Notes: generated by a model not told the origin, from the letters alone. A DNA stretch of 64,000 nt from Amphiscolops sp. MND2022 (GCA_964187785.1 OZ076409.1:73534001-73598000); one strand, 5' to 3'. Positions 691 through 40,084 are shown, counted from the first letter of the stretch. Program-made: numbers and translations.

Positions 691-787
691 TCAACGCCCA
701 CCGTCCGTGGGCATGCCGAGGCATGCCCTTCGACGACGTATGCCAATTTTTTTTCTATCTACACCCAATTGCGGTAGCAGCTAGGTG
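691..787 (+). repeat. Representative unit 3' end/junction: 51-nt conserved core (691-741) with hairpin GGGCATGCC-GA-GGCATGCCC (709-728), variable tail (742-780), CTAGGTG (781-787)
   Basis: Read directly; present at all 37 junctions. A GC-rich hairpin followed by CTRR is the established Helitron 3'-end signature, although the spacing here is longer than usual. Confidence 0.92.
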
Positions 788-1753
788 GCCGGAAATTTTT
801 TTTTTCAGCAAAATCTTTGCCATTGGGGGAGGGGCCCCGGATGGCCAGTAGTACGGGATAGCTTCCTACCAAATCCAGGCGGAAAAAACGTGATTTTGGA
901 AACTAGCCGTCAGAATTTGCTCAAATTTTGCATACGGCTTCCTATAACAATCCTAAGAACTAATCCCTACTGGCATTTTGCCCAAAAAACGCAAAAAGTT
1001 GGTCAAAATCTTAGTTTTTTGGTCAAAAAATGGCGTTTTTTCGAAAAAATTTTTTTTCAGAGACAATTACTCGTAACTGGTTCACCCAGCGCAAAAACGC
1101 CTAGCTGATTTATTGTTGGGCACTTCATGAGGAGTGCGTATACAAATTTTCGTCCAAATCGGATGAAAGTTGATTGAGAAATAACAGAAAATTTGAGGCA
1201 TTTTTTTGGAAATTTGTGAAATCCCAGTCTATCTCTGCCGTTTTTTGCCCAGATTTTTTTCCAGACACTCTCCTAAAGACCTCCCCTGGCCGGTTTACCT
1301 CCCAGCAAAACCATTTGGCCCTAAATACGGAGTTTCAGCGTTCTAGCATTCCCGGGCGAAAAGTTGTGGGACTTAGAAAAAATTTTTGGAAACGCAAAAT
1401 GTGTAAAGTCAACTTCAGGCCTCCCAAAGTCAAGAAACTTCCACACAACTAGTATTGCAAGTGAATGCATGTAGAAAGTACGTGAATAGACAAGGAAAAT
1501 GGGCTATAGAACGACTCTGTAGCTTAACTTGACGTTGACTTATGACATTTTGAGTGTGAGCGTCCTATAGGATTTTAATGTCAAAAATGAGATTTTGTAA
1601 GTCATGAGTCATCAAAAACTCATCGGAATACGTTCAATCATCCCCATAGCTGTTCAATCACCGATGTTTAGTAGAGCAACGCCATTATATGTCTTTGGAC
1701 CCATTTTAAAAATTTTCCTTACCGTCTTATTCGTCCGATATCACGAAACAGTT

Positions 1754-1799
1754 GAGTACATTCCATCTTCCCCCTTGTGGGGGAGATGAGAATGTACTC
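1754..1799 (+). repeat. Representative long subterminal hairpin, type 1 (GAGTACATTC-CATCTCCC...GGGAGATG-A-GAATGTACTC)
   Basis: Imperfect ~18-20-bp inverted repeat. It lies about 180-240 nt upstream of the core hairpin in ~1.28-kb units; in long units it lies a similar distance upstream of the degenerate duplicate core. Confidence 0.88.
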
Positions 1800-4625
1800 G
1801 CCAAAGACCTGATACAATGACCCATATTGGTTTTTATTTGACTTTTCTCACAATATTGCACACGGATAGCTGTGTTTGGTAAAAGTTTTCCTTTGCACCA
1901 TGTCTCCAGAAGCAAAACCACTTCTTTAGCTTACTACTTCTACTCAAACATCACTAACGTCAACGCCACATACTCGCATCAACGCCCACCGTCCGTGGGC
2001 ATGCCGAGGCATGCCCTTCGACGACGTATGCCAAATAGCGCCGCAGGGCGCCCCCAATTTCCGCTAGGTGCCGGGATTTCTATTCGATAAAGTATGTGGC
2101 GCGCCTTGGGTAGGGTCCCTTGCGCGCTCTTGGGTATGGTGTTCACCAGCTAGGAAACAGGGGTCGATTTTTCGGGATCTCCTAAACTAGCCACACGATT
2201 TGGCTGAAATTTGGCACACGTACCCCCCTCGGCACGGTGAAGATGATTTCCTACTGACGTTTTTCCCGCAAAATTTTTTTTGTTGTCCAAAATAACGGTT
2301 TTTGGGGGAAAATTTTGAACTTTTTTTAAATTTCATCTTATATCTCGCCACCGGTTTACGCTAGCGCTTCAAAACCCTGCTAAAGAAAGCTTGCAAACTG
2401 TCTCAGGAATGCGGTGTGAAATTTTCAGCTCAATCGGACTCAAACTCAGGGAGATATAGCGTTTTTCCGGAGCGGGGGGGTTTCATTTTTCTAACGGTCC
2501 AGCTTATCTTAGCCATTTTTTCGGAAATGTGCTCGCCTAAAGACCTCCCCTGGCCGGTTTTATTCCCAGCAAAACCATTTGACCCTAAATACGGAGTTTC
2601 AGCGTTCCAGCATTCCCGGGCGAAAAGTTGTGGGACTTAGAAAATTTCAAAAATTTTCAAAAATTTTTTTTTCCGTTTTCCGCCCTCCCCCCCTAGGGGA
2701 AAAGACCCCCCAACCAGTAATTTGAGTGAATTCATGTGGAAAGGCCATGTTTAGAGGAGAAAAATCCCGTTTAAATTGTGTTTTTATCTTTATTCAACGT
2801 TGACTTATGACGTTTTGAACGTGATGTTTGGAGGTGTGAAGCACGTGAAAAGTAAACGTTATGAGTATTTATCTGATCTGAAAGCCATTGAGATGCAACC
2901 TGTTTTGCTCAAAACGTAATTCATATCAGTTTGGTAGTCAATCAACACCCTTTGTTGTCATTTGACATCTTTTTTTGTTGATATAAGGAAAAATTTCGTG
3001 TATTTATTCATTTTTTTCTCATCAAATAACTTGAAACAGTTGAGTACATTCCATCCCCCCCTTCACGGGGGAGATGAGAATGTACTCGCAAAAAGCCCCG
3101 AACTACGGCCCTTACCTTCCTGAGCTACGCAGTATAAAGATTGCATATTTGTTCCGACATTTTGATAGAGTTATATCTTGGTAATCTGTCTGGGTATGCA
3201 GAAAAACCAGCACGTGCTTTTTTATACCAAGTTGCTCACAACGACATTTATTTTATATCAACGCCCCCATATTTATCAACGCCCCCCGTCCGTGGGCATG
3301 CCGAGGCATGCCCTTCGACGACGTATACTAAAATATGTTCGAGCGCGTTAGCCTAGGTGCCGGGATTACTATTCGATAAGGAATTTTGCGCGGTTGGGTA
3401 GGGCCCCGTGAGCGCGCCAGGGGATAGTGTTAGAACAACAAGGATTTGGGCATCAGTTGGGAGCGATTTTCTAAACTATCCGTACGATTTTGCTGAAATT
3501 TGGCACGAAGCTTCCTTGGAACATTCTAAGAACAAATCCCTACTGGCGTTTTGCTGGGAAAAATCAAAAAGTTGGTCAAAAATGCGATTTTCCGACAAAA
3601 TTTTGGGGTAAAATTTTTTTGAAACGTTATATCTCGCCACAGGGTCACGCTAGCGCCTCGCAACCTATGATCGTGTTTTGTTGGGCGTTGTCTGTAGAAC
3701 ACGTATGCCAAATTTGGTGGCGATCGGACTTAAACTCAGGGAGATATAGCGATTTTTTAGGTGCATTTTTTGACATTTTTTGCATTTGCCGATTTATCTC
3801 TGCCGTTTTTGCTCAAATTTTTTTTGAGACACTCTCCTAAAGACCTCCCCTGGCCGGTTTACCTCCCAGAAAAACCATTTGGCCCTAAATACGAAGTTTC
3901 AGCGTTCTAGCATTCCCGGGCAAAAAGTTGTGGGACTTAGAATAGTTTTTATGGTAACGCAAAATGTGTAAAGTCAACTTCAGGCCTCCCAAAGTCAAAG
4001 AACTTCCACACAACTAGGATTGCAAGTGGGTGCATGTGGAAAGTACTCGGATAGACGAGAAAAATGAGCTATAGAACGACTCTGTAGCTTAACCTGACGT
4101 TGACTTATGACAATTTTAGTGTGAGCTTGCTATTTGGTGTAAAAATTCAAATGATGAAAATCGAAGCTAAGTCTCATCCAAAACTCATCGGAATACGTTC
4201 AATGCATCCCAAAGCGGATTAATTCGAGATGTTTAGTGCAGCAACACCATTCAAGACCATTTGACCCATTTTTATAAGTTTTGACAACGTATTATTCATA
4301 CGAGAGCACGAAACAGTTGAGTACATTCCATCTCCCTTTCGGGGGAGATGAGAATGTACTCGCTAAAGTCCAGGTACTACAGCCCATATTTGCTTTTATG
4401 CGACGCTCTTATGCTAGTGCGCATACTTTTTAATCGTTTAACTGAATTTTCTTCTGTCTGCACTTTGACTTTGACTTGACATATAGTGAACGTTTTGTCT
4501 TACAACTTACAAATGAGTAACGTCAACGCCCCATCCTTGCATCAACGCCCACCGTCCGTGGGCATGCCGAGGCATGCCCTTCGACGACGTATGCCAAGAT
4601 ATATCCCAAGCGCGGTAGCAGCTAG

Positions 4626-5905
4626 GTGCCGGGATTTCTATTCGATAAAGTAAGTTGCGCGGTTGGGTAGGGCCCCGTGAGCGCGCCCGTGTCTGTGTTT
4701 TTTGAACCTGAATTTGCGGGTGCCAAAATAGACGATCTCCTAAACTATCCATACGATTTGGCTCAAATTTGGCATACGGGTTCCTGAGACAGATATAAGA
4801 ACTAATTCCTACTGGCGTTTTGCCCGGAAAATTTTTTTTGTTGCGCAAACTTGAAATTTTTGACAAAAAAATGCGATTTTTTTTGAAAAAATTTTTTTGA
4901 GAGGCCATATCTTTTTTCAGGGTGCCCGGAGCGGGACGCGTTAAACTGATTATAAACTCTACGGTTCATGGGCTGTACGGGGAACCTATTTTTGTTGGAA
5001 TCCGACTTGTAGATTTTGAGATATATTATCAAATTTGGGTGTTTTTTTTCCAATTTTTCGAAAAACCTGGTTTATCTCTGCCGTTTTTTGCCCAGATTTT
5101 TTTCTAGACCCTCTCCTAAAGGCCTCCCCTGGCCGGATTACGTCCCAGCAAAACCATTTGGCCCTAAATACGAAGTTTCAGCGTTCTAGCATTCTCGGGC
5201 GAAAAGTTGTGGGACTTAGAAAAATTTTTTTTTAAACGCAAAATGTGTAAAGTCAACTTCAGGCCTCCCAAAGTCAAGGAACTTCCACACAACTAGGATT
5301 GCAAGTGGATGCATGTGGAAAGTGCTTGAATAGACGAGGAAAATGAGCTATTATAAAACTCTGTAGCTTAACTTGACGTTGACTTATGACAATTTTAGTG
5401 TGAGCTTGCTATGTAAGAAAAAATTTCAAAAATTGAAAATCGAAGCTAAGTCTCATCCAAAACTCATCGGAATACTTTCAATCCATTCCAAAGCGGTTTA
5501 CTTCCAGCTATAGACTGCAGCAACACTATTCAAGACCATTGTACCCCTTTATATTAGTTTTGACATTGTATTATTCATCCGAGAGCACAAAGCAGTTGAG
5601 TACATTCCATCTCCCTTTCGTGGGAGATGAGAATGTACTCGCTAAAGAACAGGTACTACAGCCAATTTTTGTATTTATGCGAAGCCATTCTATGCTATTG
5701 CACATAACAACTATGCTATTGACTTAATTTTGCCTACACTTTGCTATGACATATGCTAAACGTTTGGTCCTTACAACAACATACACATGACTAACGTCAA
5801 CACCACATACTGTTACCAACGCCCACCGTCCGTGGGCATGCCGAGGCATGCCCTTCGACGACGTATGCCAAATACCTTCCAGCGACGCTCGCGCTCCCCG
5901 GCTAG
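4626..5905 (+). mobile_element. Non-autonomous cassette family Q (near-identical copies at 19991-21269 and 29108-30384)
   Basis: Same head (GTGCCGGGATTTCTATTCGATAAAGTAAG), body and tail (GCCAAATACCTTCCAGCGACGCTCGCGCTCCCCGG-CTAG) at three non-adjacent positions. Confidence 0.8.
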
Positions 5906-8900
5906 GTGCCGGGATTTCCATTCGATAAGGAATTCTGCGCGTGTGGGTAGGGCCCCTGGCGCGCTCCTGTGTTTTCGGTTTTCCTACTCCTAAATAGACC
6001 CCCTAAATTCCGGGATCTCCTAAACTATCCATACGATTTGGCTGAAATTTGGCACACGTACCCCCCTCGGCACGGTGAAGATGATTTCCTACTGACGTTT
6101 TTCCCGCTAAACATTTTTTGTTGACCAAAATAACGGTTTTTGGGGTAAAATTTTCAACTTTTTTTAAATTTCATCTTATATCTCGCCACGGGTGCTCGCT
6201 AGCGCTTCCAAACCTTGCTGACGAAAGTTTGCAAACTGTCTCAGGAAGGCTGTGTGAAAATTTCAGCTCAATCGGACTTAAACTCGAGGAGATATAGCGT
6301 TTTTCCGGAGCGGGGGGTTTCATTTTTCTAACGGTCCAGCTTATCTTTGCCATTTTTTCGAAAATGCACTCGCCTAAAGGCCTCCCCTGGCCGGTTTTAT
6401 TCCCAGCAAAACCATTCGGCCCTAAATACGGAGTTTCAGCGTTCCGGCATTCTCGGGCGAAAAGTTGTGGGACTTAGAAAATTTCAAAAATTTTCAAAAA
6501 ATTTTTTTTTCGTTATTTGGGCCCCCAAAGTGGGGGAAAAGACCCCCCAACCAGTAATTCAAGTGAATGCATGTGGAAAGGCCATGTTTAGAGGAGAAAA
6601 ATGCCGTTTAGAACGTCTTTTTATCTTGGCTCAACGTTGACTTATGACGTTTTGAAGGTGATGTTTGGAGGTGTAAAGCAAGTGAATAGTAAACGTTATG
6701 AGTATTTATCTGATCTGAAAGCCATTGAGATGCAATATGATTGCTCAAAACGTAATTCATTGCAGTTTGGCAATCAATCAACACCCTTTGTTGTCGTTTG
6801 ACATACTTTTTTGTTGTTAAAATAAAAAATTTTGTGTATTTATTCATTTTTTCTCATCAAATAACTTGGAACAGTTGAGTACATTCCATCCCCCCCTTCC
6901 GGGGGAGATGAGAATGTACTCGCAAAAAGCACCGAACTACGGCCCTTACCTTCCCGAGCTACGCAGTATAAGGATTACATATTGGTTCCGACATTTTCAT
7001 AGAGTTATATCTTGGTAATCTGTCTGGATATGCCGAAAAATCAGCACGTGCCTTTTAATACCAAGTTGCTCACAACGACAATTATTTTATATCAACGCCC
7101 CCATATTTATCAACGCCCCCCGTCCGTGGGCATGCCGAGGCATGCCCTTCGACGACGTATACCAAGATATACATAAGCGCGGTAGCAGCTAGGTGGCCGG
7201 AAATTTTTTTTTCATCAAAATCTTTGCCAGTAGTACGGGATAGCTTCCTACCAAATCCAGATGGAAAAAACGTGATTTCGGAAACTAGCCGTCAGAATTT
7301 GCTCAAATTTTGCATACGGCTTCCTATAACAATCCTAAGAACTAATCCCTACTGGCATTTTGCCCAAAAAACGCAAAAAGTTGGTCAAAATCTTAGTTTT
7401 TTGGTCAAAAAATGGCGTTTTTTCGAAAAAAAAATTTTTCAGAGACAATTACTCGTAACTGGTTCACCCAGCGCAAAAACGCCTAGCTGATTTATTGTCG
7501 GGCACTTCATCAGGAGTACGTATACAAATTTTCGTCCAAATCGGATAAAAATTGATTGAGAAATAACTGAAAATTTGAGGCATTTTTTTGGAAATTTTTG
7601 AAATCCCAGTCTATCTCTGCCGTTTTTTGCCCAGATTTTTTTCCAGACACTTTCCTAAAGACCTCCCCTGGCCGGTTTACCTCCCAGCAAAACCATTTGG
7701 CCCTAAATACAGAGTTTCAGCGTTCTAGCATTCCCGGGCGAAAAGATGTAGGACTTAGAAAAAATTCAAAAATTTTCAAAATTTTTTTTTTGCGTTTCCT
7801 GGCCCCCCAATGAAGGGGAACGACCCCCCAACTAGGATTTTTGGTGAATCCATGTGAAAAGGCCTTGTTTAGTGGAGCAAATTGCCGTTCAGAGCGACTT
7901 TTTATCTTAACTTGACGTTGACCTCTGTCGTTTTGAATTTGATATCAGTATGTGTTGAGCATGTGAAAAGTTCACGATTTCAATTGTTCTCCCGTGTTCA
8001 AGCCATTGAGATACAAGCGGTAGTGATCAAAATGTGATTTATCGCAATTTGGTGGTGTTTTTGGTGTATTTTGATTCTTTTAAATAAAAAGTTGTTCTTT
8101 CTATATTTGGTGTATTGATTCAAATTAACAAGAAACAGTTGAGTACATTTCATCTCCCCCCTTGTGGGGGAGATGAGGATGTACCCGCTAAATGACACGC
8201 ACAATGGCCCAATTTTATTTTTATGCGACGTTTTCTAGGCTTTTGCGCAAGCCCACTAAAATTTAGACTGGTTTCCTTTTCTTTTACTCCAAAATTTTCC
8301 GTACTAACCACCTTACGCACCACCAGCTCAACGTAATATCTGTAACGTCAACGCCACATACTCGCATCAACGCCCACCGTCCGTGGGCATGCCGAGGCAT
8401 GCCCTTCGACGACGTATGCCAAATAGCGCCACAGGGCGCAAACTTGTCCGCTAGGTGCCGGGATTTCTATTCGATAAAGTATGTGGCGCGTGTGGGTAGG
8501 GCCCCTGGCGCGCTCTTGGGTATGGTGTTCACCAGCTAGGAAATAGGGGTCGATTTTTCGGGATCTCCTAAACTAGCCACACGATTTGGCTGAAATTTGG
8601 CACACGTACCCCCCTCGGCACGGTGAAGATGATTTCCTACTGACGTTTTGCTCGCAAAATTTTTTTTGTTGTCCAAAATAACGGTTTTTGGTGGAAAATT
8701 TTGAACTTTTTTTAAATTTCATCTTATATCTCGCCACGGGTTTACGCTAGCGCTTCAAAACCCTGCTAAAGAAAGCTTGCAAACTGTCTCAGGAATGCGG
8801 TCTGAAATTTTCAGCACAATCGGACTTAAACTCAAGGAGATATAGCGTTTTTCCGGAGCGGGGGGGTTTCATTTTTCTAACGGTCCAGCTTATCTTAGCC

Positions 8901-11900
8901 ATTTTTTCGAAAATGTACTCGCCTAAAGACCTCCCCTGGCCGGTTTTATTCCCAGCAAAACCATTTGGCCCTAAATACGGAGTTTCAGCGTTCCAGCATT
9001 CCCGGGCGAAAAGTTGTGGGACTTAGAAAAATTCAAAAATTTTCAAAATTTTTTTTTTCGGTTTTCCGCCCTCCCCCCGAGGGGAAAAGACCCCCCAACC
9101 AGTAATTTGAGTGAATTCATGTGGAAAGGCCATGTTTAGAGGAGAAAAATCCCGTTTAAATCGTCTTTTTATCTTTATTCAACGTTGACTTATGACGTTT
9201 TGAAGGTGATGTTTGGAAGGTGTGAAGCACGTGAAAAGTAAACGTTATGAGTATTTATCTGATCTGAAAGCCATTGAGATGCAATCTGTTTTGCTCAAAA
9301 CGTAATTCATATCCGTTTGGTAGTCATACAACACCCTTTGTTGTCATTTTACATCTTTTTTGTTGATATAAGAAAAAATTTTGAGTATTTATTCATTTTT
9401 TTCTCATCAAATAACTTGAAACAGTTGAGTACATTCCATCCCCCCTTCACGGGGGAGATGAGAATGTACTCGCAAAAAGCCCCAAACTACGGCCCTTACC
9501 TTCCTGAGCTACGCAGTATAAAGATTGCATATTGGTTCCGATATTTTGATAGAGTTATATCTTGGTAATCTGTCTGGGTATGCAGAAAAACCAGCACGTG
9601 CTTTTTTATACCAAGTTGCTCACAACGACATTTATTTTATATCAACGCCCCCATATTTATCAACGCCCCCCGTCCGTGGGCATGCCGAGGCATGCCCTTC
9701 GACGACGTATACCAAGATATGTTCGAGCGCGTTAGCCTAGGTGTATTTTTACACAAAGGGGGATGTTGCGCGTGTGGGGAGGGTCCCTGACGCGCTCCCG
9801 GGATTTCGGATTTTTTAACCTTTACGTACCCATCAAAAATTTTGGGATCTCGAAAACTAGCCGTACGATTTGGCTGAAATTTGGCACACGTACCCCCCTC
9901 GGCACGGTGAAGATGATTCCCTACTGACGTTTTTCCCGCTAAACATTTTTTGTTGACCAAAATAACGGTTTTTGGGGTAAAATTTTCAACTTTTTTTAAA
10001 TTTCATCTTTTATCTCGCCACGGGTACACGCTAGCGCTTCCAAACCTTGCTGACGAAACCTTGCAAACTGTCTCAGGAATGCTGTGTGAAATTTTCAGCT
10101 CAATCGGACTTGAACTCGAGGAGATATAGCGTTTTTCCGGAGCGGGGGGGTTTCATTTTTCTAACGGTCCAGCTTATCTTTGCCATTTTTTCGAAAATGC
10201 ACTCGCCTAAAGGCCTCCCCTGGCCGGTTTTACTCCCAGCAAAACCATTTGGCCCTAAATACGGAGTTTCAGCGTTCCAGCATTCCCGGGCGAAAAGTTG
10301 TGGGACTTAGAAAATTTCAAAAATTTTCAAAAATTTTTTTTTTCGTTATTTGGGCCCCCAAAGTGGGGGAAAAGACCCCCCAACCAGTAAAGCAAGTGAA
10401 TGCATGTGCAAAGCCCTTGTTTGGACGAGAAAAATGCCGTTTAAAACGTCTTTTTATCTTGGCTCAACGTTGACTTATGACGTTTTGAAGGTGTCCGTTA
10501 GATACAGAAAATTGATATTTTGAGTATTTATCCCATCTGAAAGCCATTGAGATACATGTTTTGCTCAAAACGTGTTTCATTGCAGTTCCGCTGTCCATTG
10601 ACACCCTTTGATGTCTTTTGACGTAATTTTCTTTTCTATAATAACAATTTTTCTGTGTATTTATTCATTTTTTTCTCATCAAATAACTTGAAACAGTTGA
10701 GTACATTCCATCTCCCTTCCCGGGGGAGATGAGAATGTACTCGCTAAAGGTCAGGAACTACGGTCTATATCTTCCACAACACAAAAGCAATTGAAAATTG
10801 TTTCAGTTTGTCGCAGAAAACTTTTCTTTTTGCACTCAGTGACTCGGCAAAGTGAGCGATTTTGACCCATATTGAATCTTACTTTACCACAACTCATCTC
10901 TAACGTCAACGCCCCCCACACACATCAACGCCCCCCGTCCGTGGGCATGCCGAGGCATGCCCTTCGACGACGTATAACAAAATATATTCGAACGCGGTAG
11001 CCGCTAGGTGCCGGGATTTTCTATTCGACAAGTTTGCGCGCCTTGGGGAGGGTCCCTTTGCGCGCTTTAAGATCCAGGTGTTTCCAACTCCTAAACGGGC
11101 ATGTGATTTCGACGATCTCCTAAACTAGCCATACGATTTGGCTGAAATTTGGCACACGTACCCCCCTCGGCACGGTGAAGATGATTCCCTACTGACGTTT
11201 TTCCCGCTAAACATTTTTTGTTGACCAAAATAACGGTTTTTGGGGTAAATTTTTCAACTTTTTTTAAATTTCATCTTATATCTCGCCACGGGTACACGCT
11301 AGCGCTTCCAAACCTTGCTGACGAAACCTTGCAAACTGTCTCAGGAATGCTGTGTGAAATTTTCAGCTCAATCGGACTTAAACTCGAGGAGATATAGCGT
11401 TTTTCCGGAGCGGGGGGGTTTCATTTTTCTAACGGTCCAGCTTATCTTTGCCATTTTTTCGAAAATGCACTCGCCTAAAGGCCTCCCCTGGCCGGTTTTA
11501 TTCCCAACAAAACCATTTGGCCCTAAATACGGAGTTTCAGCGTTCCAGCATTCCCGGGCGAAAAGTTGTGGGACTTAGAAAAGTTCAAAAATTTTCAAAA
11601 AAAAATTTTTCCGTTGTTTGGGCCCTCAAAGTGGGGGAAAAGACCCCCCAACCAGTAAAGCAAGTGAATGCATGTGGAAAGCCCTTGTTTAGACGAGAAA
11701 AATGCCGTTTAGAACGTCTTTTTATCTTAACTTGACATTGACTTTTGTCGTTTTGAAGGTGACCGTTAGATACGGAAAATTGATGTTTTGAGTATTTATC
11801 CCATCTGAAAGCCATTGAGATACAACATGTTTTGCTCAAAACGTGTTTCATTGCAGTTTCGCTGTCCATTATCACCCTTTGGTGTCTTTTCACGTAATTT

Positions 11901-14866
11901 TTGTTTCTATAATAACAATTTTTTTGTGTATTTATTCATTTTTTTCTCATCAAATAACTTGAAACAGTTGAGTACATTCCATCTCCCTTCCCGGGGGAGA
12001 TGAGAATGTACTCGCTAAAGGTCAGGAACTACGGTCTATATCTTCCACAACACAAAAGGGATTGCAAATGGTTTCAGTTTGTCGCAGAAAACTTCTTTTT
12101 GCCCTCTGTGACTCGACAAAATGAACGTTTCTTACTTACTTTGAAACTCAGCATACCACAACTCATCTCTAACGTCAGCGCCCCCCTACTTGCATCAACG
12201 CCCCCCGTCCGTGGGCATGCCGAGGCATGCCCTTCGACGACGTATACCAAGATATACCTGGAGCGCGGTAGCCGCTAGGTGCCGGGATGACTATTCGATA
12301 AAGTATTTTGCGCGGTTGGGTAGGGCCCCGTGAGCGCGCCAGGGGATAGTGTTAGAACAACAAGGATTTGGGCATCAGTTGGGAGCGATTTTCTAAACTA
12401 TCCGTACGATTTGGCTCAAATTTGGCATACATGTTCCTGAGACAGATATAAGAACTAATTCCTACTGGCGTTTTGCCCGGAAAATTCAAAAAGTGGGTCA
12501 AAATTGAAATTTTCGGCAAAAAAATGCGATTTTTTTTGAAAAAAATTTTTTGAGAGGCCATATCTTTTTTCAGGGAGCCCGGAGCGGGACGCGTTAAACT
12601 GATTATAAACTCTACGGTTCATGGGCTTTACGGAGAACCTAGGCTCGTTTCGCTCGGACAAATTGTCTTGGAGATATAACGGTATTTTTCGGGAATTTTT
12701 TGAAAATTTTTCAACGGTCCAGCTTATCTTTGCCATTTTTTCGAAAATGTACTCGCCTAAAGGCCTCCCCCTGGCCGAATTTACTCCCAGCAAAACCATT
12801 TGGCCCTAAATACGGAGTTTCAGCGTTCCAGCATTTCCGGGCGAAAAGTTGTGGGACTTAGAAAAATTTCAAAATTTTTCAAAAAAATTTTTTTCGTTTT
12901 CCGGCCCCCTTTGAAGGGGAAAGGACCCCCCAACCAGTAATTTGAGTGAATTCATGTGGAAAGGCCATGTTTAGAGGAGAAAAATGCCGTTTAGATCGTC
13001 TTTTTATTTTAACCTGTCGTTGACTTATGTTGTTTTGAAGGTGATGTTTGGATGTGTGAAGCATGTGAAAAGGTAATTTATTGTGTCTTTAGCTCTTCTA
13101 AAAGCCATTGAGATACACGATGTGTGACTCAGAACGTGTTTAATTCTAATTTAGCAATGCATCAACACTTTTTTGTGTCTTTTGACTCTGTTTAAAAAAA
13201 TTTTTTCCGACTAAAATCAAAAATTATTTATAATTATTCACATTTTTTTTCTGATCTCATGACTCGAAACAGTTGAGTACATTCCATCTCCCTTCCCGGG
13301 GGAGATGAGAATGTACTCTTTAGAGACCAGGTACTGCAGTACTTACCTTCCCCGAGCAACGCCCCATAAAAATTGCGTTCTGACACAGATATTTTGACAA
13401 AATTTTATCTTTGTAATTTGACTGGAAATGAAGAAAATGCCGCACGTGCTCTTTTATATCAAGTATCTTAACAACGCCATCTCTTTTACGTCAACGCCCC
13501 ATCCTTGCATCAACGCCCACCGTCCGTGGGCATGCCGAGGCATGCCCTTCGACGACGTATACCAAGATATACATCGAGCGCGTTAGCCTAGGTGCCGGTG
13601 TATTTTTACACAATGGGGGATGTTGCGCGTGTGGGGAGGGTCCCTGACGCGCTTCCGTGGTTTCGGGTCTTCTAACCTATGATAGCGTGACACCTGACTT
13701 CGATCTCGTAAACTAGCCGTACGATTTGGCTGAAATTTGGCACACGTACCCCCCTCGGCACGGTGAAGATGATTTCCTACTGACGTTTTTCCCGCTAAAC
13801 ATTTTTTGTTGACCAAAATAACGGTTTTTGGGGTAAAATTTTGAATTTTTTTTATATTTCATCTTATATCTCGCCTCGGATACACGCTAGCGCTTCCAAA
13901 CCTTGCTGACGAAAGCTTGCAAACTGTCTCAGGAATGCTGTGTGAAATTTTCAGCTCAATCGGACTTAAACTCGGGGAGATATAGCGTTTTTTCGGAGCG
14001 GGGGGGTTTCATTTTTCTAACGGTCCAGCTTATCTTTGCCATTTTTTCGAAAATGCACTCGCCTAAAGGCCTCCCCTGGCCGGTTTTATTCCCAACAAAA
14101 CCATTTGGCCCTAAATACGGAGTTTCAGCGTTCCAGCATTCCCGGGCGAAAAGTTGTGGGACTTAGAAAAGTTCAAAAATTTTCAAAAAAAATTTTTTCC
14201 GTTATTTGGGCCCTCAAAGTGGGGGAAAAGACCCCCCAACCAGTAAAGCAAGTGAATGCATGTGGAAAGCCCTTGTTTAGACGAGAAAAATGCCGTTTAG
14301 AACGTCTTTTTATCTTAACTTGACATTGACTTTTATGGTTTTGAAGGTGACCGTTAGATACGGAAAATTGATGTTTTGAGTATTTATCCCATCTGAAAGC
14401 CATTGAGATACAACATGTTTTGCTCAAAACGTGTTTCATTGCAGTTTCGCTGTCCAATATCACCCTTTGGTGTCTTTTCACGTAATTTTCGTTTCTATAA
14501 TAACAATTTTTTTGTGTATTTATTCATTTTTTTCTCATCAAATAACTTGAAACAGTTGAGTACATTCCATCTCCCTTCCCGGGGGAGATGAGAATGTACT
14601 CGCTAAAGGTCAGGAACTACGGTCTATATCTTCCACAACACAAAAGGGATTGCAAATGGTTTCAGTTTGTCGCAGAAAACTTCTTTTTGCCCTCTGTGAC
14701 TCGACAAAATGAACGTTTCTTACTTACTTTGAAACTCAGCATACCACAACTCATCTCTAACGTCAGCGCCCCCCTACTTGCATCAACGCCCACCGTCCGT
14801 GGGCATGCCGAGGCATGCCCTTCGACGACGTATACCAAGATATACCTGGAGCGCGGTAGCCGCTAG

Positions 14867-16170
14867 GTGGCCACGACCATGGTTTCTTGCGTATCTTGTC
14901 GAATCCTTTGTCGTTGCCGGCCGGGGAGGGACCCGTTTGCCGGCGTGTGTAGTGTGGGGCCCCCATACCCAAAAAGTGGTATTTTTTTCAGAGATCTCAA
15001 AATCGGCCCGTCAGAATTGCCTGAAATTTGGCATGAGGCTCCCAATTGGGGAAAAAATAAGAAGTGTAGGAGGCGACTTGTTCGGGTAAATATTGTATGT
15101 TGACTTTTGGCCAAAATAGTGTTCCCCCCCAACATGGGCAAAATCACATGAGGTGTAAAAATATGATCACAACTTTTGAACCTTTGGATTTAGGGGTACG
15201 GTCGTGGACCACATTAAGCAAGAGCTTTGGTGAGCGGGTAGGATAGATGGGTTTTGATCCCAGTACCTTCAACCACTTTTGAGAAATTAACGTTTCAAAC
15301 AAACATCCGGGAGGTATATGTTGCCCCTGAAGGCAGGTTTTTCGCCATTTTCAATGTGAAGGAGTGGGTTTAGCGCAACGTGTGTGGGGTGCTTTTTTGT
15401 TGCCCGTGTGCGGAGCGTTGTATAGAGGTGCTGGTTGTTGAAATTGGAAAAGTTGGTAAAAAGTTATACCTATATCCCCCCTACTGTCTCTGCCATTCAA
15501 TTTTTTTTTCAACTTCAGGCCTCCCAAAGGTGAGAAACTTCCACACAACTAGTATTGCAAGTGAATGCATGTGGAAAGTACTCGGATAGACGAGAAAAAT
15601 GAGCTATAGAACGACTCTGTAGCTTAACTTGACGTTGACTTATGACAATTTGAGTGTGAGCTTGCTATGTGAGAAAAAAATTCAAAATTGAAAATCGAAG
15701 CCAAGTCTCATCCAAAACTCATCGAAATACGTTCAATCCATCCCAAAGCGGATTAATTCCAGATATATAGTGCAGCAACACTATTCAAGACCATTTGATA
15801 CAATTTTACTAGTTTTGACATTGTATTATTCATCCGAGAGCACAAAACAGTTGGGTACATTCCATCTCCCTTTCGGGGGAGATGAGAATGTACCCGCTAA
15901 ATGACACGCACCATGGCCTAATTTTTACCTTTATGCGACGTTTTCTAGGCTTTCGCGCAAGCCCACTAATATTTACACTGGTTTCTTTCTCTTTCACTCC
16001 AAACTTTCCGTCCGTACTAACCACCTTACACACCACCAGCAGCTCAACGACACATCTGTAACGTCAACGCCACATACTCGCATCAACGCCCACCGTCCGT
16101 GGGCATGCCGAGGCATGCCCTTCGACGACGTATGCCCGTTGTCACAACAGGGCGCCCCTACATTCTCTAG
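14867..16170 (+). mobile_element. Non-autonomous cassette family P (near-identical copies at 22674-23978 and 23979-25275)
   Basis: A distinct ~640-bp 5' half is joined at CAACTTCAGGCCTCCCAAAG to the common 3' half; the tail begins GCCCGTTGTCACAACAGGGC in all three. Confidence 0.8.
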
Positions 16171-19100
16171 GTGGCCGGAAATTTTTTTTTTTCATCAAAA
16201 TCTTTGCCATTGGGGGAGGGGCCCCGGATGGCCAGTAGTTCGGCTTGGCTACCTGCAAAATCAGGTACAAAAAAACACGATCTCAAAATTGGCCCGTCAG
16301 AATTCGCTCATTTTTTGCATGCGGCCCTAGAATCAATATATAAGAACAAAGTCCTGCTGACGTTTTGCCGAAAAAACATTTTTTGTTGACCAAAAATAAC
16401 ATTTTTCATGCCAAAATGACCGTTTTTTCACATTTTTCAACTTTGAGAGCTCATATCTCGTTCCCAAGTACCCGGAGCGGTTCGCACGTGAACTGCAATA
16501 TTGCTCAGCGTTGTTAACGGAGTGCGTGGACAAATTTTGGTCCAAATTGGACTTAAACTCGGGGAGATATAAACGGATTTTTAGGGGTTTCCGGGGTAAA
16601 TTTTTTAACGGTCCAGCTTATCTTTGCCATTTTTTGGAAAATGTACTCGCCTAAAGGCCTCCCCCTGGCCGAATTTACTCCCAGCAAAACCATTTGGCCC
16701 TAAATACGGAGTTTCAGCGTTCTAGCATTTCCGGGCGAAAAGTTGTGGGACTTAGAAAAAATTCAAAATTTTTCAAAAAATTTTTTTTTCGTTTTCCGGC
16801 CCCCCAATGAAGGGGAACGACCCCCCAACTAGGATTTTTGGTGAATCCATGCGAAAAGGTCTTGTTTAGTGGAGAAAAATGCCGTTTAGAGCGACTTTTT
16901 ATCTTAACTTGACGTTGACTTATGTCGTTTTGAATTTGATATTAGTATGTGTTGAGCATGTGAAAAGTTGAACATTTCAGTTGTTCTTTCGTGTTAGCCA
17001 TTGAGATACAAGCTGTAGTGATCAAATTGTGATTTTTTGCAGTTTCGTGGTGCTTTTGGTGTATTTTGATTCTTTTGATAAAAAAGTTGTTCTTTATATA
17101 TTGACAATTTTGGTGTATTGATTCAATTGAACATGAAACAGTTGAGTACATTTCATCTCCCTCTTGGGGGAGATGAGAATGTACTCGCTAAAGTCCTAGT
17201 ACTATGACCCATTTTTGTTTTTATCAGACGCAGATACTGCCAACGGATACTTTTTGCTGGTGCAACTTTCCTGTGCACAATGTCTTTAGAAGCTAGAAAA
17301 CTCTATGTCTCTAGCTTACTTCTCCTACAAATTCGTCACCAACGTCAACGCCACACACTCTCACTAACGCCCACCGTCTGTGGGCATGCCGAGGCATGCC
17401 CTTCGACGACGTATGCCAAATAGCGCCACAGGGCGCCCAATTTTGTCTAGGTGCCGGTGTTTTTTTACACAATGGGGGAAGTTGCGCGTGTGGGGAGGGT
17501 CCCTGACGCGCTCCCGGGATTTCGGATTTTTTAACCTTTACGTACCCATCAAAAATTTTGGGATCTCGAAAACTAGCCGTACGATTTGGCTGAAATTTGG
17601 CACACGTACCCCCCTCGGCACGGTGAAGATGATTCCCTACTGACGTTTTGCTCGCTAAACATTTTTTGTTGACCAAAATAACGGTTTTTGGGGTAAAATT
17701 TTCAACTTTTTTTAAATTTCATCTTATATCTCGCCACGGGTACACGCTAGCGCTTCCAAACCTTGCTGACGAAACCTTGCAAACTGTCTCAGGAATGCTG
17801 TGTGAAATTTTCAGCGCAATCGGACTTAAACTCGAGGAGATATAGCGTTTTTCCGGAGCGGGGGGGTTTCATTTTTCTAACGGTCCAGCTTATCTTTGCC
17901 ATTTTTTCGAAAATGCACTCGCCTAAAGGCCTCCCCTGGCCGGTTTTATTCCCAGCAAAACCATTTGGCCCTAAATACGGAGTTTCAGCGTTCCAGCATT
18001 CCCGGGCGAAAAGTTGTGGGACTTAGAAGATTTCAAAAATTTTCAAAAAAATTTTTTTCCGTTATTTGGGCCCCCAAAGTGGGGGAAAAGACCCCCCAAC
18101 CAGTAAAGCAAGTGAATGCATGTGGAAAGCCCTTGTTTAGACGAGAAAAATGGCGTTTAGAACGTTTTTTTGTCGTAACTTGACATTGACTTTTGTCGTT
18201 TTGAAGGTGACCGTTAGATACGGAAAATTGATGTTTTGAGTGTTTATCCCATCTGAAAGCCATTGAGATACAACATGTTTTGCTCAAAACGTGTTTCATT
18301 GCAGTTTCGCTGTCCATTAACACTCTTTGGTGTCTTTTGACGTAATTTTCTTTTCTATAATAACAATTTCTTTGTGTATTTATTCATTTTTTTCTCATCA
18401 AATAACTTGAAACAGTTGAGTACATTCCATCTCCCTTCCCGGGGGAGATGAGAATGTACTCGCTAAAGGTCAGGAACTACGGTATATATCTTCCACAACA
18501 CAAAAGAGATTGCAAATTGTTTCAGTTTGTCGCAGAAAACTTCTTTTTGCACTCTGTGACTCGACAAAGTGAACGTTTCTTACTTACTTTGAATCTCACC
18601 ATACCACAACTCATCTCTAACGTCAACGCCCCCCACACACATCAACGCCCCCCGTCCGTGGGCATGCCGAGGCATGCCCTTCGACGACGTATAGCAAAAT
18701 ATATTCGAACGCGGTAGCCGCTAGGTGCCGGTGTTTTTCACGACAAAGAAAGTTGCGCGCTTTGGGTAGGGTCCCGGCGCGCTTTTGGGGTTCATTTTAA
18801 CAACCTGATAGGACACATGCTGAAATGACCGATCTCCTAAACTACCCTACCAATTTTGCTGAAATTTGGCACGAAGCTTCCTTGGAACATTCTAAGAACA
18901 AATCCCTACTGGCGTTTTGCTGGGAAAAATCAAAAAGTTGGTCAAAAATGCGATTTTCCGACAAAATTTTGGGGTAAAATTTCTTTGAAACGTTATATCT
19001 CGCCACAGGGTCACGCTAGCGCCTCGCAACCTATGATCGTGTTTTGTAGGGCGTTGTCTGTAGAACACGTATGCAAAATTTGGTGGCAATCGGACTTAAA

Positions 19101-21269
19101 CTCAGGGAGATATAGCGATTTTTTAGGTGCTTTTTTTGACATTTTTTGCATTTGCTGATTTATCTCTGCCATTTTTGCCCAAAATTTTTTTGAGACCCTC
19201 TCCTAAAGACCTCCCCTGGCCGGTTTACCTCCCAGAAAAACCATTTGGCCCTAAATACGAAGTTTCAGCGTTCTAGCATTCCCGGGCAAAAAGTTGTGGG
19301 ACTTAGAAAAATTTTTTCGAAAACGCAAAATGTGTAAAGTCAACTTAAGGCCTCTCAAAGTCAAAGAACATCCACACAACTAGTATTGCAAGTGAATGCA
19401 TGTGAAAAGTACTCGAATAGACGAGGAAAATGAGCTATAGAACGACTTTCTATCTTAATTTGACGTTGACTTATGACAATTTTAGTGTGAGCTTGCTACA
19501 TGGTGAAAAATTCAAAAGATGAAGATCGAAACTAAGTCTCATCCAAAACTCATCGGAATACGTTCAATGCATCCCAAAGCGGAATAATTCCAGGTGTCTA
19601 GTGCAGCAACACCATTCAAGACCATTTGACCCATTTTTATAAGTTTTGACAACGTATTATTCATCCGAGAGCACGAAACAGTTGAGTACATTCCATCTCC
19701 CTTTTGGGGGAGATGAGAATGTACTCGCTAAAGTCCAGGTACTACAGCCCATATTTGTTTTTATGCGACGCTCTCATGCTAGTGCGCATACTTTTTATTC
19801 GTTTAACTGAATTTTCTTCTGTCTGCACTTTGACTTTGACTTGACGTATACTGAACGTTTTGTCCTTACAACATACACATTACTAACGTCAACGCCCCAC
19901 ACTCACATCAACGCCCACCGTCCGTGGGCATGCCGAGGCATGCCCTTCGACGACGTATACCAAGATATACATAAGCGCGGTAGCCGCTAGGTGCCGGGAT
20001 TTCTATTCGATAAAGTAAGTTGCGCGGTTGGGTAGGGCCCCGTGAGCGCGCCCGTGTCTGTGTTTTTTGAACCTGAATTTGCGGGTGCCAAAAAAGACGA
20101 TCTCCTAAACTATCCATACGATTTGGCTCAAATTTGGCATACGGGTTCCTGAGACAGATATAAGAACTAATTCCCACTGGCGTTTTGCCCGGAAAATTTT
20201 TTTTGTTGCGCAAACTTGAAATTTTTGACAAAAAAATGCGATTTTTTTTGAAAAAATTTTTTTGAGAGGCCATATCTTTTTTCAGGGTTCCCGGAGCGGG
20301 ACGCGTTAAACTGATTATAAACTCTACGGTTCATGGGCTGTACGGGGAACCTATTTTTGTTGGAATCCGACTTGTAGATTTTGAGATATATTATCAAATT
20401 TGGGTGTTTTTTTCCAATTTTTCGAAAAACCTGGTTTATCTCTGCCGTTTTTTGCCCAGATTTTTTTCTAGACCCTCTCCTAAAGGCCTCCCCTGGCCGG
20501 ATTACGTCCCAGCAAAACCATTTGGCCCTAAATACGAAGTTTCAGCGTTCTAGCATTCTCGGGCGAAAAGTTGTGGGACTTAGAAAATTTTTTTTTAAAA
20601 CGCAAAATGTGTAAAGTCAACTTCAGGCCTCCCAAAGTCAAGGAACTTCCACACAACTAGGATTGCAAGTGGATGCATGTGGAAAGTGCTTGAATAGACG
20701 AGGAAAATGAGCTATTATAAAACTCTGTAGCTTAACGTGACGTTGACTTATGACAATTTTAGTGTGAGCTTGCTATGTGAGAAAAAATTTCAAAAATTGA
20801 AAATCGAAGCTAAGTCTCATCCAAAACTCATCGGAATACGTTCAATCCATTCCAAAGCGGTTTACTTCCAGCTATAGACTGCAGCAACACTATTCAAGAC
20901 CATTGTACCCCTTTATATTAGTTTTGACATTGTATTATTCATCCGAGAGCACAAAGCAGTTGAGTACATTCCATCTCCCTTTCGGGGGAGATGAGAATGT
21001 ACTCGCTAAAGAACAGGTACTACAGCCAATTTTTGTATTTATGCGAAGCCATTCTTTGCTATTACACATAACAACTATGCTATTGACTTAATTTTGCCTA
21101 CACTTTGCTATGGCATATGCTAAACGTTTGGTCCTTACAACAACATACACATGACTAACGTCAACACCACATACTGTTACCAACGCCCACCGTCCGTGGG
21201 CATGCCGAGGCATGCCCTTCGACGACGTATGCCAAATACCTTCCAGCGACGCTCGCGCTCCCCGGCTAG

Positions 21270-22673
21270 GTGGTCGGGTATTTTTTTTTACTCGTATATG
21301 ACGTTTGCGAGGCTTTGGGGAGGGCCCCGTGCCGAGCCTGTTCCGAAAATCGCCACATGTAGAAATCTGGCACTAAAATGCGAGATCTCAAAAAGTAGCC
21401 GTTAGAATTCTCTGAAATTTTGCATGTGGCTCAGAATTAATGAGTAATGAAAAAGTGTAGAAGTGAAGGTCGCTGAAAAAATGGTCCTTGTTGCACTTTT
21501 TGCGCAATTTTTGTCTGATTGTTGCGTTTTTTATGTCATTTTCGACTTTTCAAGCAAAAAACTCATGAATGCTTTGTTCCTAGCGCATCAAGTGTGGAGC
21601 ACGAAAAGTTGCAGCATCTCCAATTGCGTATGCTGAGAAAATTTGGTTGCCGTCGGGTTACCCCCCACAGAGGTAGAGGGGTACTTCCGGTTATTTTTGA
21701 CCCCCTAAATTAGGTAAACTGCTAATTTTTGTAATGAAGCCGTAGATTTAGCGTGTCCGCACCCTGCTGAAGTTTTGTTAGGCATTTTGAGAGAGACCCA
21801 ATGACATGTGTTCAGTTCACCCCCCATCACCCCCTTGACCGGAAATGAACGTTTTTGTGCACTTTCAGACCGGATGTCTCCATTTTCACCGGTAAGGAGG
21901 CCTTGTACGACCAACTAGCAGGATATCAAAATTGAAGTATAACCCAGGGTCAACTTAATGACCACGTGTTGTCCAGTCATGGGTTTCACTATGACCGGAA
22001 ATGGGCTCAAAACCCCACTTTTAGTAGTTTTTTATCAATTTGAATAGTGTTTGGTCCACATTCAGGTGGCGTAAGTCACTTGCACCAGTGTGAGTATTAA
22101 CTGCATGTTCACTGCGTAGACGTAACTGACACTGTCAGATACCGGAAGTAACCCCATTTGACCGAAAGTGGTCAATTTTGACCGGAAATGGTCCAAAAAG
22201 TAGCGTAAAAGCAGTTTTTCACTACTTTTTAGGGACAATTTTTTACTTTTTTTTCAATCTGAATGCCTCCTTTATACTACCAAAGCTAACATCGTTGCCT
22301 GTTTTGCTAAAGATTTGGCAATTGATTACCTTTATCAACCCCGATAGCCTTCCAAGTTGACCTTGGGTCAATCTTGAAGGCTATCTATACTTAAAACGAA
22401 AAATCGAGATAAGTTGTTTTCTCCATTACGTTGATAATTTTTCCTTGATGTCAAATTGTTAAGCAAAGACTTTTAAGCAAATTAACAATCTGAATCTTGT
22501 TCAGAGGTCTCACCCTGAGGAAGATTATTTGAGATTGAAGTAAACTGAGAATGAGGTTAGTATTTGTCAACATCAGAGAATCTTATCAACGCCCACCGTC
22601 TGTGGGCATGCCGAGGCATGCCCTTCGACGACGTATGCCAAATAGCGCCACAGGGCGCCCACACTTTTGCTAG
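21270..22673 (+). mobile_element. Non-autonomous cassette family R, ~1.4 kb (relatives at 52907-54297 and 63640-64000, partial)
   Basis: Head GTGGTCGGGTATTTTTTTTACTCGTA; carries ACCGGAA repeats and the type-2 long hairpin (22343-22385); same core and CTAGGTG ends. Confidence 0.78.
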
Positions 22674-31324: not shown

Positions 31325-31404
31325 TTTTTTCTTAGGTTTTTTTGTCTAGGATTTTTTTCTTTGGTTTTTTTGCTTAGGTTATAGGTGTAGGTTATAGGTT
31401 AGGC
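31325..31404 (+). repeat. Short degenerate T-run/TAGG repeat tract
   Basis: TTTTTTCTTAGG TTTTTTTGTCTAGG ... TTAGGTTATAGGTGTAGGTTATAGGTTAGG read directly. Confidence 0.6.
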
Positions 31405-33010
31405 TTTTTGTAAGGCCCTGTTGGCTTTCCCTGTTCACAGCATAGTTTGTTTTTAGTGGCAGAAGAAGACGACGACGACCAAGCATACGAGTTTTTTCTT
31501 TTTTTTTTGGTTTTCCTTGGGGTTAATGGCTATCCCGAAACCAGTGGCTCCTGCTCGAGGGCTTCTCGGGTGCTGGTTTCGTGTATGGGGTTTCCCCCCC
31601 CCCCCAGTAGGTAACCTCTGCCCAAATTTTCAAACGTCCCTCGTAATTCGCATTTTGCCGGTGTCTTTTTTTTACGGGCGTTTCGTCGAAAAAGATAGAA
31701 TTTTTCTCGGAACCGGCAAAATCGGAAAATCAATCACCAAAAATAAACGACGTCGAGAAATCAATCAGACTTATCGGGCGTCCAGTTGCTACAAAGAAGA
31801 AGTACAGATTAACTATGCTTCAGTTTCAGGTGCCTGTCAATCGAGCTCAAGATGTCTTTTTTTGTAACTTATTAAATAGTCCATAAAGTTATTGAAAATA
31901 GGGAAATTTGTAAAGGTTAGTTTTTTTGAATATTGATAGAAATTTTTGATCATATGTACTAGTGCTTTTAAAAGCAACAGGATATATAAATATAAAGTAA
32001 ACTAAATTGCAGTTTAACTGTTCTAATTTCCTTCAGTTTTAGTTTACAGATGAAGACTCGCCATAGCCATACGTAACGTTATCTGAATCGAATTCGCGGA
32101 GACTTTCACATCTGCACATCGTTCGTACGGTCGTTATTGAGCATAAAATACGCTCATTGAAAAAATGTGTGATCGGCGTCGTTCAATTTCTACATGTAAC
32201 TTACGTTCCCTATTATGAAGTCTTAATTTGTTACATATCTCTGCGGGATCTCTGCCATTATATAGTTTTGACCTATCTAAAAATGTTTAATGGTTTAACC
32301 CATCAAGCTATTGAACTATTTGGATGTTGGATGAACCTGTTTTTGATTCTGATCAAAGAGTCAATTTCTCGTCATATTATACGATTATGACACCAGATTT
32401 CTTCTCCAATTTAAACAAAAAATTGAATGTTTGGTAGACTTTTGGAACCCGCAGAGAAAACAGTTCCAATGTAAAGGCTATGTTTATGAATCCTTTGTAC
32501 CAGATGCACTTGAGAATGAATTCTACCAATAAAAGACTTGAAACCTCTTGTACTGTATGTTTGATGTATGTTTATTTTATACTGAGAGTCAAGAAGGTCT
32601 TTAATTATCGCGAGATATCGTTTCATTTTTTCTGTGAAATTCCTATCATTTATCGTTTTTCAGCAGTCAAACAAACCTTGATATTCTTTGATAATACGCT
32701 GCCTACAAAGTTTTAGCGATCGGCTCATTGTTTCTTTTGTCGGAGGTGCGTAAAAATGTAATGATACATCGTGTAAGCGATAACTTCATATTCCAACAAT
32801 GTTTCAACAAATCTCGTGATATACCTAGTAGTTCTCGATCATCACACTTTCAAAGCTATGATGTTTGAAACTGGTCGTTTTCGCTATCACCAGGATTTTT
32901 GAATTGCAGTTATTCTGAATTTTTTTAATACCTTCAAAATACTTCTTTTCTCGAAGCGTTTCGTGACAACTTATGTTTCAAACGTGTATCTGATTGTGCG
33001 AAACTTCACC

Positions 33011-33028
33011 TTTTATTTATTTTTTCAG
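33011..33028 (+). promoter_or_regulatory. Probable 3' splice acceptor (cis or trans) just before the first ATG of the large ORF
   Basis: T-rich tract TTTTATTTATTTTTTCAG|G ends 4 nt before ATG 33033; inferred from the spliceosomal consensus only. Confidence 0.5.
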
Positions 33029-33032
33029 GGTT

Positions 33033-40031: not shown

Positions 40032-40042
40032 ATATATTTCTG

Positions 40043-40084
40043 CGCTTGCCCGGATCGCGCAGTGATCCAAGGGCAAGCGTCTAG
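40043..40084 (+). other. GC-rich hairpin followed by CTAG, 11 nt after the stop codon
   Basis: CGCTTGCCC-GGATC-gcgcagt-GATCC-aa-GGGCAAGCG, then T-CTAG. A possible poly(A) signal ATTAAA lies at 40169-40174. Confidence 0.7.

Follow-up and report, generated by a model that had tools for sequence, protein, structure and literature searches.

We analysed a 64,000-nucleotide (nt) stretch of the genome of Amphiscolops sp. MND2022 (GCA_964187785.1, OZ076409.1:73534001-73598000; hereafter the window), in which repeated units stand head to tail and meet at the 7-mer CTAGGTG. With good confidence, we interpret CTAG/GTG as the seam at which one copy ends and the next begins in a divergent family of Helitron-like elements that run GTG...CTRG and insert without duplication at CTNG^[AGT]T (the caret marks the cut; D below stands for A, G or T), probably under a single nicking rule and with existing seams as probable preferred landing sites. 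These elements likely constitute a new Helitron-like lineage, the third besides HLE1 and HLE2, that stacks on its own seams.

Homology switches at the CTAG/GTG seam

The motif CTAGGTG occurs 37 times in the window, always on the + strand, against an expectation of 3.2 and a maximum of 10 among 100 shuffles. A fuzzy search independent of the motif recovered 37 conserved tail blocks, in each of which (37/37) the palindrome ends 44-57 nt upstream of CTAGGTG; because this search yields 37 blocks at 37 seams, the definition of the seam is not circular. On the other side, a head box lies 36-57 nt downstream of 35 of the 37 seams.

A sequence-only reading of the window had proposed that homology switches at CTAGGTG at all 37 junctions, and pairwise comparison bears this out, as identity collapses at the edges of the 7-mer. 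Among 14 pairs with the same head and different upstream bodies, identity was 100% over positions -4 to +3, 71% at -5 and 36% at -6; among 11 pairs with the same upstream body and different heads, it dropped from 100% at +3 to 27% at +4. Within units, the tails of same-head pairs were at least 85% alike in 15 of 17 cases; across the seam, same-tail pairs shared the next head in only 2 of 13. The examples behind the proposal also hold. One tail is followed by three heads (over the 95 nt compared, the tails at 5902, 21266 and 30381 show no difference, and their units are 99% identical), and one head follows different tails, the heads at 25276, 26557 and 30385 being the same and those at 21270, 52907 and 63640 near-identical, with 21270 differing at two positions. 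When tail type was tabulated against next head type, 225 seams gave 210 distinct combinations. The claimed invariance of the 7-mer holds within the window (37/37) and not beyond it: the left 4-mer of 231 sampled seams was CTAG in 200, CTGG in 20, CTTG in 6 and another sequence in 5.

Copies flanked by host DNA define the ends and the target

Across the genome, 3,764 of 3,888 tail-pattern matches (~97%) were followed by CTAGGTG. Other matches continued as CTAG plus A, C or T (78; A 53, T 20, C 5 by manual count), CTAGGT plus a base other than G (42) or CTAGG plus a base other than T (4); a reversed-pattern control for the first class gave 15, and a few of the 78 are unrelated. From these lists, 60 further loci were fetched out of the 78 and 20 out of the 42, and base +2 was T in 56 of 63 terminal tails from the 78-list set. 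Automatic boundary calling frequently strayed into host repeats, and for many terminal tails the fetched 6 kb contained no recognisable head; 21 two-ended copies were chosen by eye from loci L001-L080. Their left flanks read C in 19, T in 21, any base, and G in 19, and their right flanks [AGT] in 21 followed by T in 18. Ten further copies or mini-arrays read CTNG^[AG]T in 10/10. Over all 31, the left host 4-mer was CTTG in 12, CTAG in 7, CTCG in 5, CTGG in 4 and another in 3 (CTNG in 28/31), and the element began with GTG in 29, with GTA once and GCG once.

Flanked by host DNA at either end, these copies establish GTG...CTRG as the element ends and CTNG^[AGT]T as the target, without duplication. 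All 36 complete units in the window end in CTAG and none (0/36) starts with TC; other families end in CTGG, and a few copies in CTTG. The hairpin lies 44-57 nt from the 3' end in 37/37 cases, not ~11 nt as in HLE1, and the host base at -1 is G in 29/31, so insertion does not occur between A and T as it does for HLE1. The sequence-only reading had called the GTG start atypical of both Helitron groups, and it is; the solo copies that were inspected do not run TC...CTRR in host AT sites, and they end at the same place as the seam. Its description of both ends as non-canonical was correct for the 5' GTG and incorrect for the 3' CTAG, which is the canonical CTRR of HLE1 Helitrons; what is non-canonical is therefore confined to the 5' start, the target site and the distance of the hairpin from the 3' end.

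The position of the nick, which had been considered unresolvable from sequence, can be narrowed. Host variation at position -2 of the left flank and +1 of the right flank leaves two possible cuts, CTA^G and CTAG^. In two copies (L060 and L023), the left flank has no G yet the right end still reads CTAG, which favours a CTAG^GTG cut and ends GTG...CTAG. Canonical TC/AT ends were rejected, as the two-ended copies read GTG...CTRG at CTNG^[AGT]T. We also rejected a hairpin that would span seams in general and place the nick in its loop, because heads and tails pair freely; such a hairpin is present at 5902 and not at 42426. The host target mimics the element's own seam, a point absent from the sequence-only reading, and this resemblance is the likely reason for the existence of the array.

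Insertion is clean at empty and nested sites

Three empty-site tests established that insertion causes neither duplication nor loss at the target. At L035, whose host is a tRNA-like repeat, the two flanks are adjacent, with offset 0, in 11/11 empty paralogs. At L123, whole units occupy both targets, 13 nt apart, of a unit body that is intact in the window at 3156..3193 (+ strand; CTTG^GT after 3180 and CTGG^GT after 3193), and L243 carries an independent insertion at the first of these two targets. At L066, a host repeat of which L030 is the empty counterpart carries two insertions spaced 17 nt from each other. A further near miss of 16 nt, at L268, is known from the occupied site alone.

The tRNA-like short repeat that hosts the L035 insertion is abundant (L082-L092; 663 first-look candidates), and ARAGORN called one of the two copies scanned. 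At L026:6052, the final 32 nt of a tail from another family come directly after a unit end and lead into a normal seam; this arrangement suggests an insertion inside a tail, of which the left junction was not found.

Units of different families form megabase arrays

The array containing the window starts at a host CTAG near C1:70.455 Mb and ends near 76.49 Mb, giving ~6 Mb (C1:70.45-76.49 Mb) as judged from samples. All 16 samples from C1:70.70-76.25 Mb carried + strand seams and none carried - strand seams; 4 samples outside the array had no seams. Two heads at C1 76.06-76.09 Mb are in reverse orientation, so the array is mostly one-way. A genome search with the Rep gave 120 matches of 28-100% identity, many in open frames of more than 2,100 amino acids (aa), clustered on the C1 array, C2 and C3. 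Further dense clusters of autonomous copies of the lineage, in both orientations, lie at C2:102.0-103.9 Mb and C3:2.4-3.9 Mb. At L115/L116 (C3:3156200-3176199), a 2,525-aa lineage open reading frame (ORF) stands between 2.4-kb direct repeats that are 94.6% identical, and no seam was recognised there.

The arrays are mixed. Among 20 fetched autonomous loci, 16 had seams nearby and 13 had them on both sides; these seams were called by the head box, which is therefore common to the loci by construction. Their tails belong to several unrelated types, all ending in CTRG or CTTG, and families with Reps 28-76% identical to the window Rep are co-arrayed. Mixed mini-arrays of 2-8 units occur whole in single host sites. 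In copies 98-100% identical to one unit, the match stops at or near the seam among the few candidates scored, and the downstream neighbours of three 3.07-kb units with 99.1-99.7% identity share no more than 84-87%. Within the window, 84 CTNG[AGT]T sites on the + strand and 140 on the - strand lie unused off seams, and 0/36 units are interrupted; given these 224 unused sites and the absence of any broken unit, the 6-mer alone does not explain the pattern.

The 3.07-kb units, which end in CTGG, have one of two short-unit types directly downstream in 6/7 cases, and these are not block copies (L260/L246, L261/L242, L262/L257, L263/L258 and L273/L042). The recurring pairs make a partner preference among families possible. 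Co-transposed dimers were rejected as their source, as the partners are 84-87% identical against 99% for the big units.

The autonomous unit encodes a divergent Rep-helicase with a GIY-YIG domain

One unit, an autonomous GTG...CTAG element at 30385..42429, is arrayed like the others and has sequence in common with the short units over up to ~800 nt of its head and ~60 nt of its tail; all features described in this section lie on the + strand. An intact ORF of 2,332 aa from ATG (33033..40031) encodes a Cys/His-rich N-terminal part, an HUH Rep, a PIF1-like helicase and a C-terminal GIY-YIG domain. The Rep catalytic motifs (36369..36896) comprise HUH (H1113, H1115) and the two tyrosines of Y1284-x-x-K-Y1288, and both HUH and YxxKY are conserved among 34 aligned proteins. 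The PIF1-like superfamily 1B (SF1B) helicase spans aa ~1736-2150 (38238..39482), and the GIY-YIG nuclease domain aa 2215-2274 (39675..39854; 32.3 bits against a cut-off of 22.6, with weak SLX1-type PDB matches). Directly before the ATG, a pyrimidine tract plus AG at 33020-33035 resembles a splice acceptor, and an upstream exon may exist.

The ORF matches Helitron_like_N and PIF1 weakly (31 and 33 bits); HLE1 proteins of the same genome score ~195-200 and 220-240 bits, respectively. The predicted Rep region (predicted local distance difference test score, pLDDT, 85) matched Helraiser (PDB 7lcc) alone at E 1.4e-9 and had it as the top fold match at Z 14.7, with a root-mean-square deviation of 3.8 over 334 aligned positions; identity to Helraiser is 15-16%, and phmmer with the lineage protein gave no Helraiser match at E<=0.1. 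DUF6570 was found in 0/14 lineage proteins and in 7/7 in-genome HLE2 references, and the lineage protein had no APE endonuclease match. In an unrooted Rep tree whose references all come from this one genome, 33 lineage rows separated on a long branch from 8 HLE2 rows and 2 HLE1 rows (the latter one family) with 100/100 support. A quick helicase tree gave the separation a weak support of 84, and a poorly filled HLE2 row adjoins the lineage. Loci L200-L219 showed that canonical HLE1 ORFs of ~1,320 aa are present in the genome as well, along with a diverse set of HLE2 ORFs that carry DUF6570, OTU or JAB domains, L204 being assigned to HLE2 by motif only.

GIY-YIG is present in the window protein and in 10 of 13 relatives scanned; its motif is degenerate or missing in several relatives, and those proteins are not assigned to arrayed copies. 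Database relatives number 730 clusters at E<=0.001, the weak end of which may include other Helitrons, and 168 at 1e-30. The 55 full-length relatives include two named ones, hypothetical proteins of Perkinsus olseni. Two lineage relatives (P0043 and P0044) carry a UCH ubiquitin-hydrolase domain, N-terminal in P0044; UCH is enriched in HLE2 subgroups c and d according to the HELIANO study (PMC11417382).

Relatives also occur at 47 metagenome loci. One boundary pair among them, L137/L140, reads CTGG/GTAG and CTAG/GTAG, and the case for other hosts sharing these ends, resting on this CTRG/GTAG pair, is thin. Head-box-like motifs were also seen in L142, L161 and L162/L163; in L142:1-75 and L162:150-216, upstream of distant relatives, the motif lies ~50 nt past CTGG/TT or CTCG/TT, marking candidate boundaries. 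No arrays were seen around the 47 loci, whose contigs are short, and short pattern scans detected no relatives in viral and prokaryote contigs.

Comparison with known systems

In Helraiser, it is the plus strand that moves, and the circles produced join CTAG precisely to the start (PMC4778049, PMC5876387). The window lineage resembles HLE1/Helraiser in its two-tyrosine (Y2) HUH Rep fused to a PIF1-like helicase, a 3' CTAG after a palindrome, the absence of target duplication, a head-to-tail CTAG/start joint and a Rep region that folds like 7lcc. It differs in starting with GTG rather than TC, in a palindrome 44-57 nt rather than ~11 nt from the end, in targeting CTNG^DT rather than A^T, in a protein of ~2,300 aa with C-terminal GIY-YIG, and in its mixed-family arrays.

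With HLE2 (Helentron/Helitron2), the lineage shares a RepHel with extra domains. Some HLE2 members prefer 4-nt targets, such as TTTT in Chlamydomonas and TNAT^A in FoHeli1/2 (PMC11417382, PMC3627910, PMC5148889), one moss HLE2 family has captured a GIY-YIG (PMC11417382), and scattered self-insertion is reported for FoHeli in Fusarium (PMC5148889). Unlike HLE2, the window lineage lacks DUF6570, T-rich ends and an APE endonuclease match, and in the unrooted, single-genome Rep tree it forms a separate branch. HLE2-type terminal inverted repeats, 8-17 nt long, were not found in the window units, where the longest inverted match between head and tail was 4-8 nt, near that of shuffled pairings; T^T or TTTT^ insertion was not seen in the 31 two-ended copies or mini-arrays. 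The element is thus Helitron-like and has neither the ends and target of HLE1 nor the domains and ends of HLE2. HELIANO distinguishes two clades, with a few clusters left unclassified (PMC11417382); members of the lineage could be among those in its Fig. 8A, in its supplements or in Repbase.

The target rule resembles, by description, that of IS91, which likewise has a Y2 HUH transposase, a target tetranucleotide resembling its own ter end and no target duplication. The nick of the plasmids pC194 and pUB110 falls at the CTTG^AT point. This hexamer, the commonest host context of the window lineage, is also found in the pC194/pUB110 origin as printed in PMC5031790. IS91 inserts in one orientation next to CTTG (rarely CTCG or CTGG), and its own ter is cleaved at CTCG (PMC13181058); CTTG is also the commonest host 4-mer here (12/31). 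In contrast to the window lineage, which has a helicase and lives in a 1.07-Gb eukaryote genome, IS91 is prokaryotic and has no helicase or GIY-YIG, and the accessible part of PMC13181058 describes no megabase mixed arrays for it. By analogy, the lineage would act like a Helitron with an IS91-like target rule.

Plant tandem Helitron arrays are described as concatemers of truncated copies, often with many 5' ends and one 3' end (Xiong 2016, per PMC12628747); they too are head-to-tail, whereas the window units are complete and have neighbours mostly of different families. Replitrons are eukaryotic HUH transposons that insert in one orientation 3' of a short target (PMC10288648); they have one tyrosine, no helicase, terminal direct repeats and a CRESS-virus-related Rep, in contrast to the YxxKY and helicase of the window lineage. 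A search of openly accessible article texts turned up no report of elements that run GTG...CTRG, of insertion at CTNG^DT or of mixed families stacking at seams.

Proposed mechanism and alternative explanations

We propose that one nick rule of the two-tyrosine Rep, CTNG^DT, serves origin, terminus and target; a shared rule of this kind would make existing seams likely preferred landing sites. By analogy to Helraiser and IS91, the Rep would nick at CTNG^GTG, the helicase would peel off the plus strand, and a second nick past the subterminal hairpin would close a circle with the joint CTAG^GTG. Strand transfer at a chromosomal seam would then place the unit between the old tail and the old head. 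Each such insertion would turn one seam into two, the seam being both a perfect target and an origin. Because the 6-mer alone cannot explain the seam bias, we infer that a Rep bound to an existing element end would recruit the incoming copy; the near misses of 13, 16 and 17 nt would fit a tethered enzyme using the nearest site. The head (GTG plus box) would be a somewhat likelier tether than the tail, because tails differ among co-arrayed families and because L246 has one unit more upstream than L252 at the same host site. Concatemer insertion and recombination in the bodies add local runs and mosaics, and the GIY-YIG domain might, as a guess, trim branched intermediates.

Several observations weigh against this interpretation. 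Three of the 31 left flanks lack CTNG; the 31 copies were drawn from tail-pattern matches, which introduces bias at +1 and +2, and the 10 extra ones were mostly picked for GT. Four of the 20 autonomous loci had no seam under the head pattern used. Block-copy searches scored only 7 of 1,914 and 5 of 2,668 candidates, with no copied three-unit block among the few scored. Selection against dispersed copies may inflate the share of seams. The choice of head over tail as tether rests on the shared head box and on L246/L252, which could perhaps be two independent insertions, and the nicking chemistry and attraction to seams, including activity, circle and nick, we infer from analogy. Unit bodies are mosaic, homology also switching inside units, so the seam is not the sole exchange point and recombination is active; the expected sharp breakpoint at the seam was observed, and its exclusivity was not. 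Of 317 same-tail pairs, 18 also agreed in the following head, against 5.8 in shuffles (maximum 14). Finally, single-family runs (L270, L272) and the L243 dimer indicate that concatemers or local duplication occur.

The last three points would also be expected if one-element rolling-circle concatemers had later been mixed by unequal crossing-over or conversion, leaving the seam only an apparent switch point, and plant tandem Helitron arrays are attributed to concatemers (Xiong 2016, as reported in PMC12628747 and PMC11934779). We regard this origin as unlikely: exchange between homologous sequences should take place mainly in the conserved 60-nt tail block or in the bodies and should link the variable tail to the next head, whereas identity instead falls 1-2 nt outside the 7-mer, and the arrays are common to unrelated tail types and to Reps down to 28% identical. 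The mixed 2-8-unit arrays at single host sites and the nested insertions with empty-site proof also oppose it. That the GIY-YIG domain cuts the target in a homing-like manner while the Rep only ligates seems quite improbable; the domain is a stable lineage feature, being in the window protein and 10/13 relatives, but the target matches the element's own terminal or joint sequence as an HUH nick site would, there is no duplication, and several relatives have a degenerate or missing motif. There is very little chance that the 6-mer suffices for insertion and that the arrays are survivors in a harmless or heterochromatic region. More than 100 array-end or dispersed tails and the body insertions in L123 and L243 are compatible with that idea, which is strongly disfavoured by the 224 unused off-seam sites, the absence of broken units, the single orientation of all window units and the exclusively + strand seams of 16/16 samples across 5.5 Mb.

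Returning to insertion at seams, we lean slightly toward a broader proposition: that this is an undescribed third major Helitron-like lineage, widespread in eukaryotes, whose elements retain an IS91-like CTNG^DT nick rule and employ their own origins as shared docking sites; dozens of families (Reps 28-75% identical) would then build communal megabase arrays, a self-made safe harbour and possibly a chromosome domain.

In Helitron rolling-circle transposition, no steps are less well understood than the choice of target and integration, and the sharp target rule, the strong seam preference and the many intact ORFs make both testable with oligonucleotides and one protein. Repeated targeted insertion of whole different elements would be a route to megabase tandem DNA that differs from amplifying a single monomer. 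GTG...CTRG ends would likely escape finders that look for TC...CTRR or inverted repeats, and site-directed gene delivery might benefit from a transposase able to insert at a defined seam without duplication.

Anatomy of the window units

The window contains 36 complete head-to-tail units (785..63639), one of which measures 12,045 nt and the other 35 of which measure 1.26-2.40 kb; this and the following features are on the + strand. At the seam at 5902..5908, the 3' end of unit 4626-5905 is joined to the 5' start of unit 5906-7192, and the cut most likely falls between 5905 and 5906. The non-autonomous unit upstream of this seam (4626..5905; 1,280 nt) is 99% identical to units 19991-21269 and 29108-30384, and each of the three has a different downstream neighbour. 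Its conserved 3' subterminal palindrome, GGGCATGCC-GA-GGCATGCCC (5834..5853; fold z -2.2), has 37 copies in the window, 44-57 nt before the cut, and is a likely candidate for the termination signal; its core 18-mer occurs 4,998 times in the genome (G000). Between the conserved block and CTAG lies a family-variable tail segment (5867..5901) with no linkage to the next head. The head box, of type GGG[TG]AGGG[TC]CC (5945..5955), stands ~40 nt past GTG, is common to co-arrayed families with unrelated tails, and is a candidate Rep-binding origin.

A second long palindrome, starting with GAGTACATT, lies ~300 nt upstream of the seam (5598-5642) and at similar places in many units; the 9-mer GAGTACATT has 27 exact copies in the window. 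Units 785, 3357, 5906, 9741, 11008, 13592, 17451 and 18725 have exchanged their first ~100 nt and other body segments among themselves; units 9741 and 11008, for example, are 61% identical over the first 100 nt and 95-99% over the following 600, and the swapped first ~100 nt suggest that the head region contains a second zone of exchange. The ~2.38-kb units at 49259-61448 contain two copies of a block that the autonomous unit has singly, near position 620-780. Identity between units 54298 and 56674 is ~99-100% over 1.7 kb, after which they diverge.

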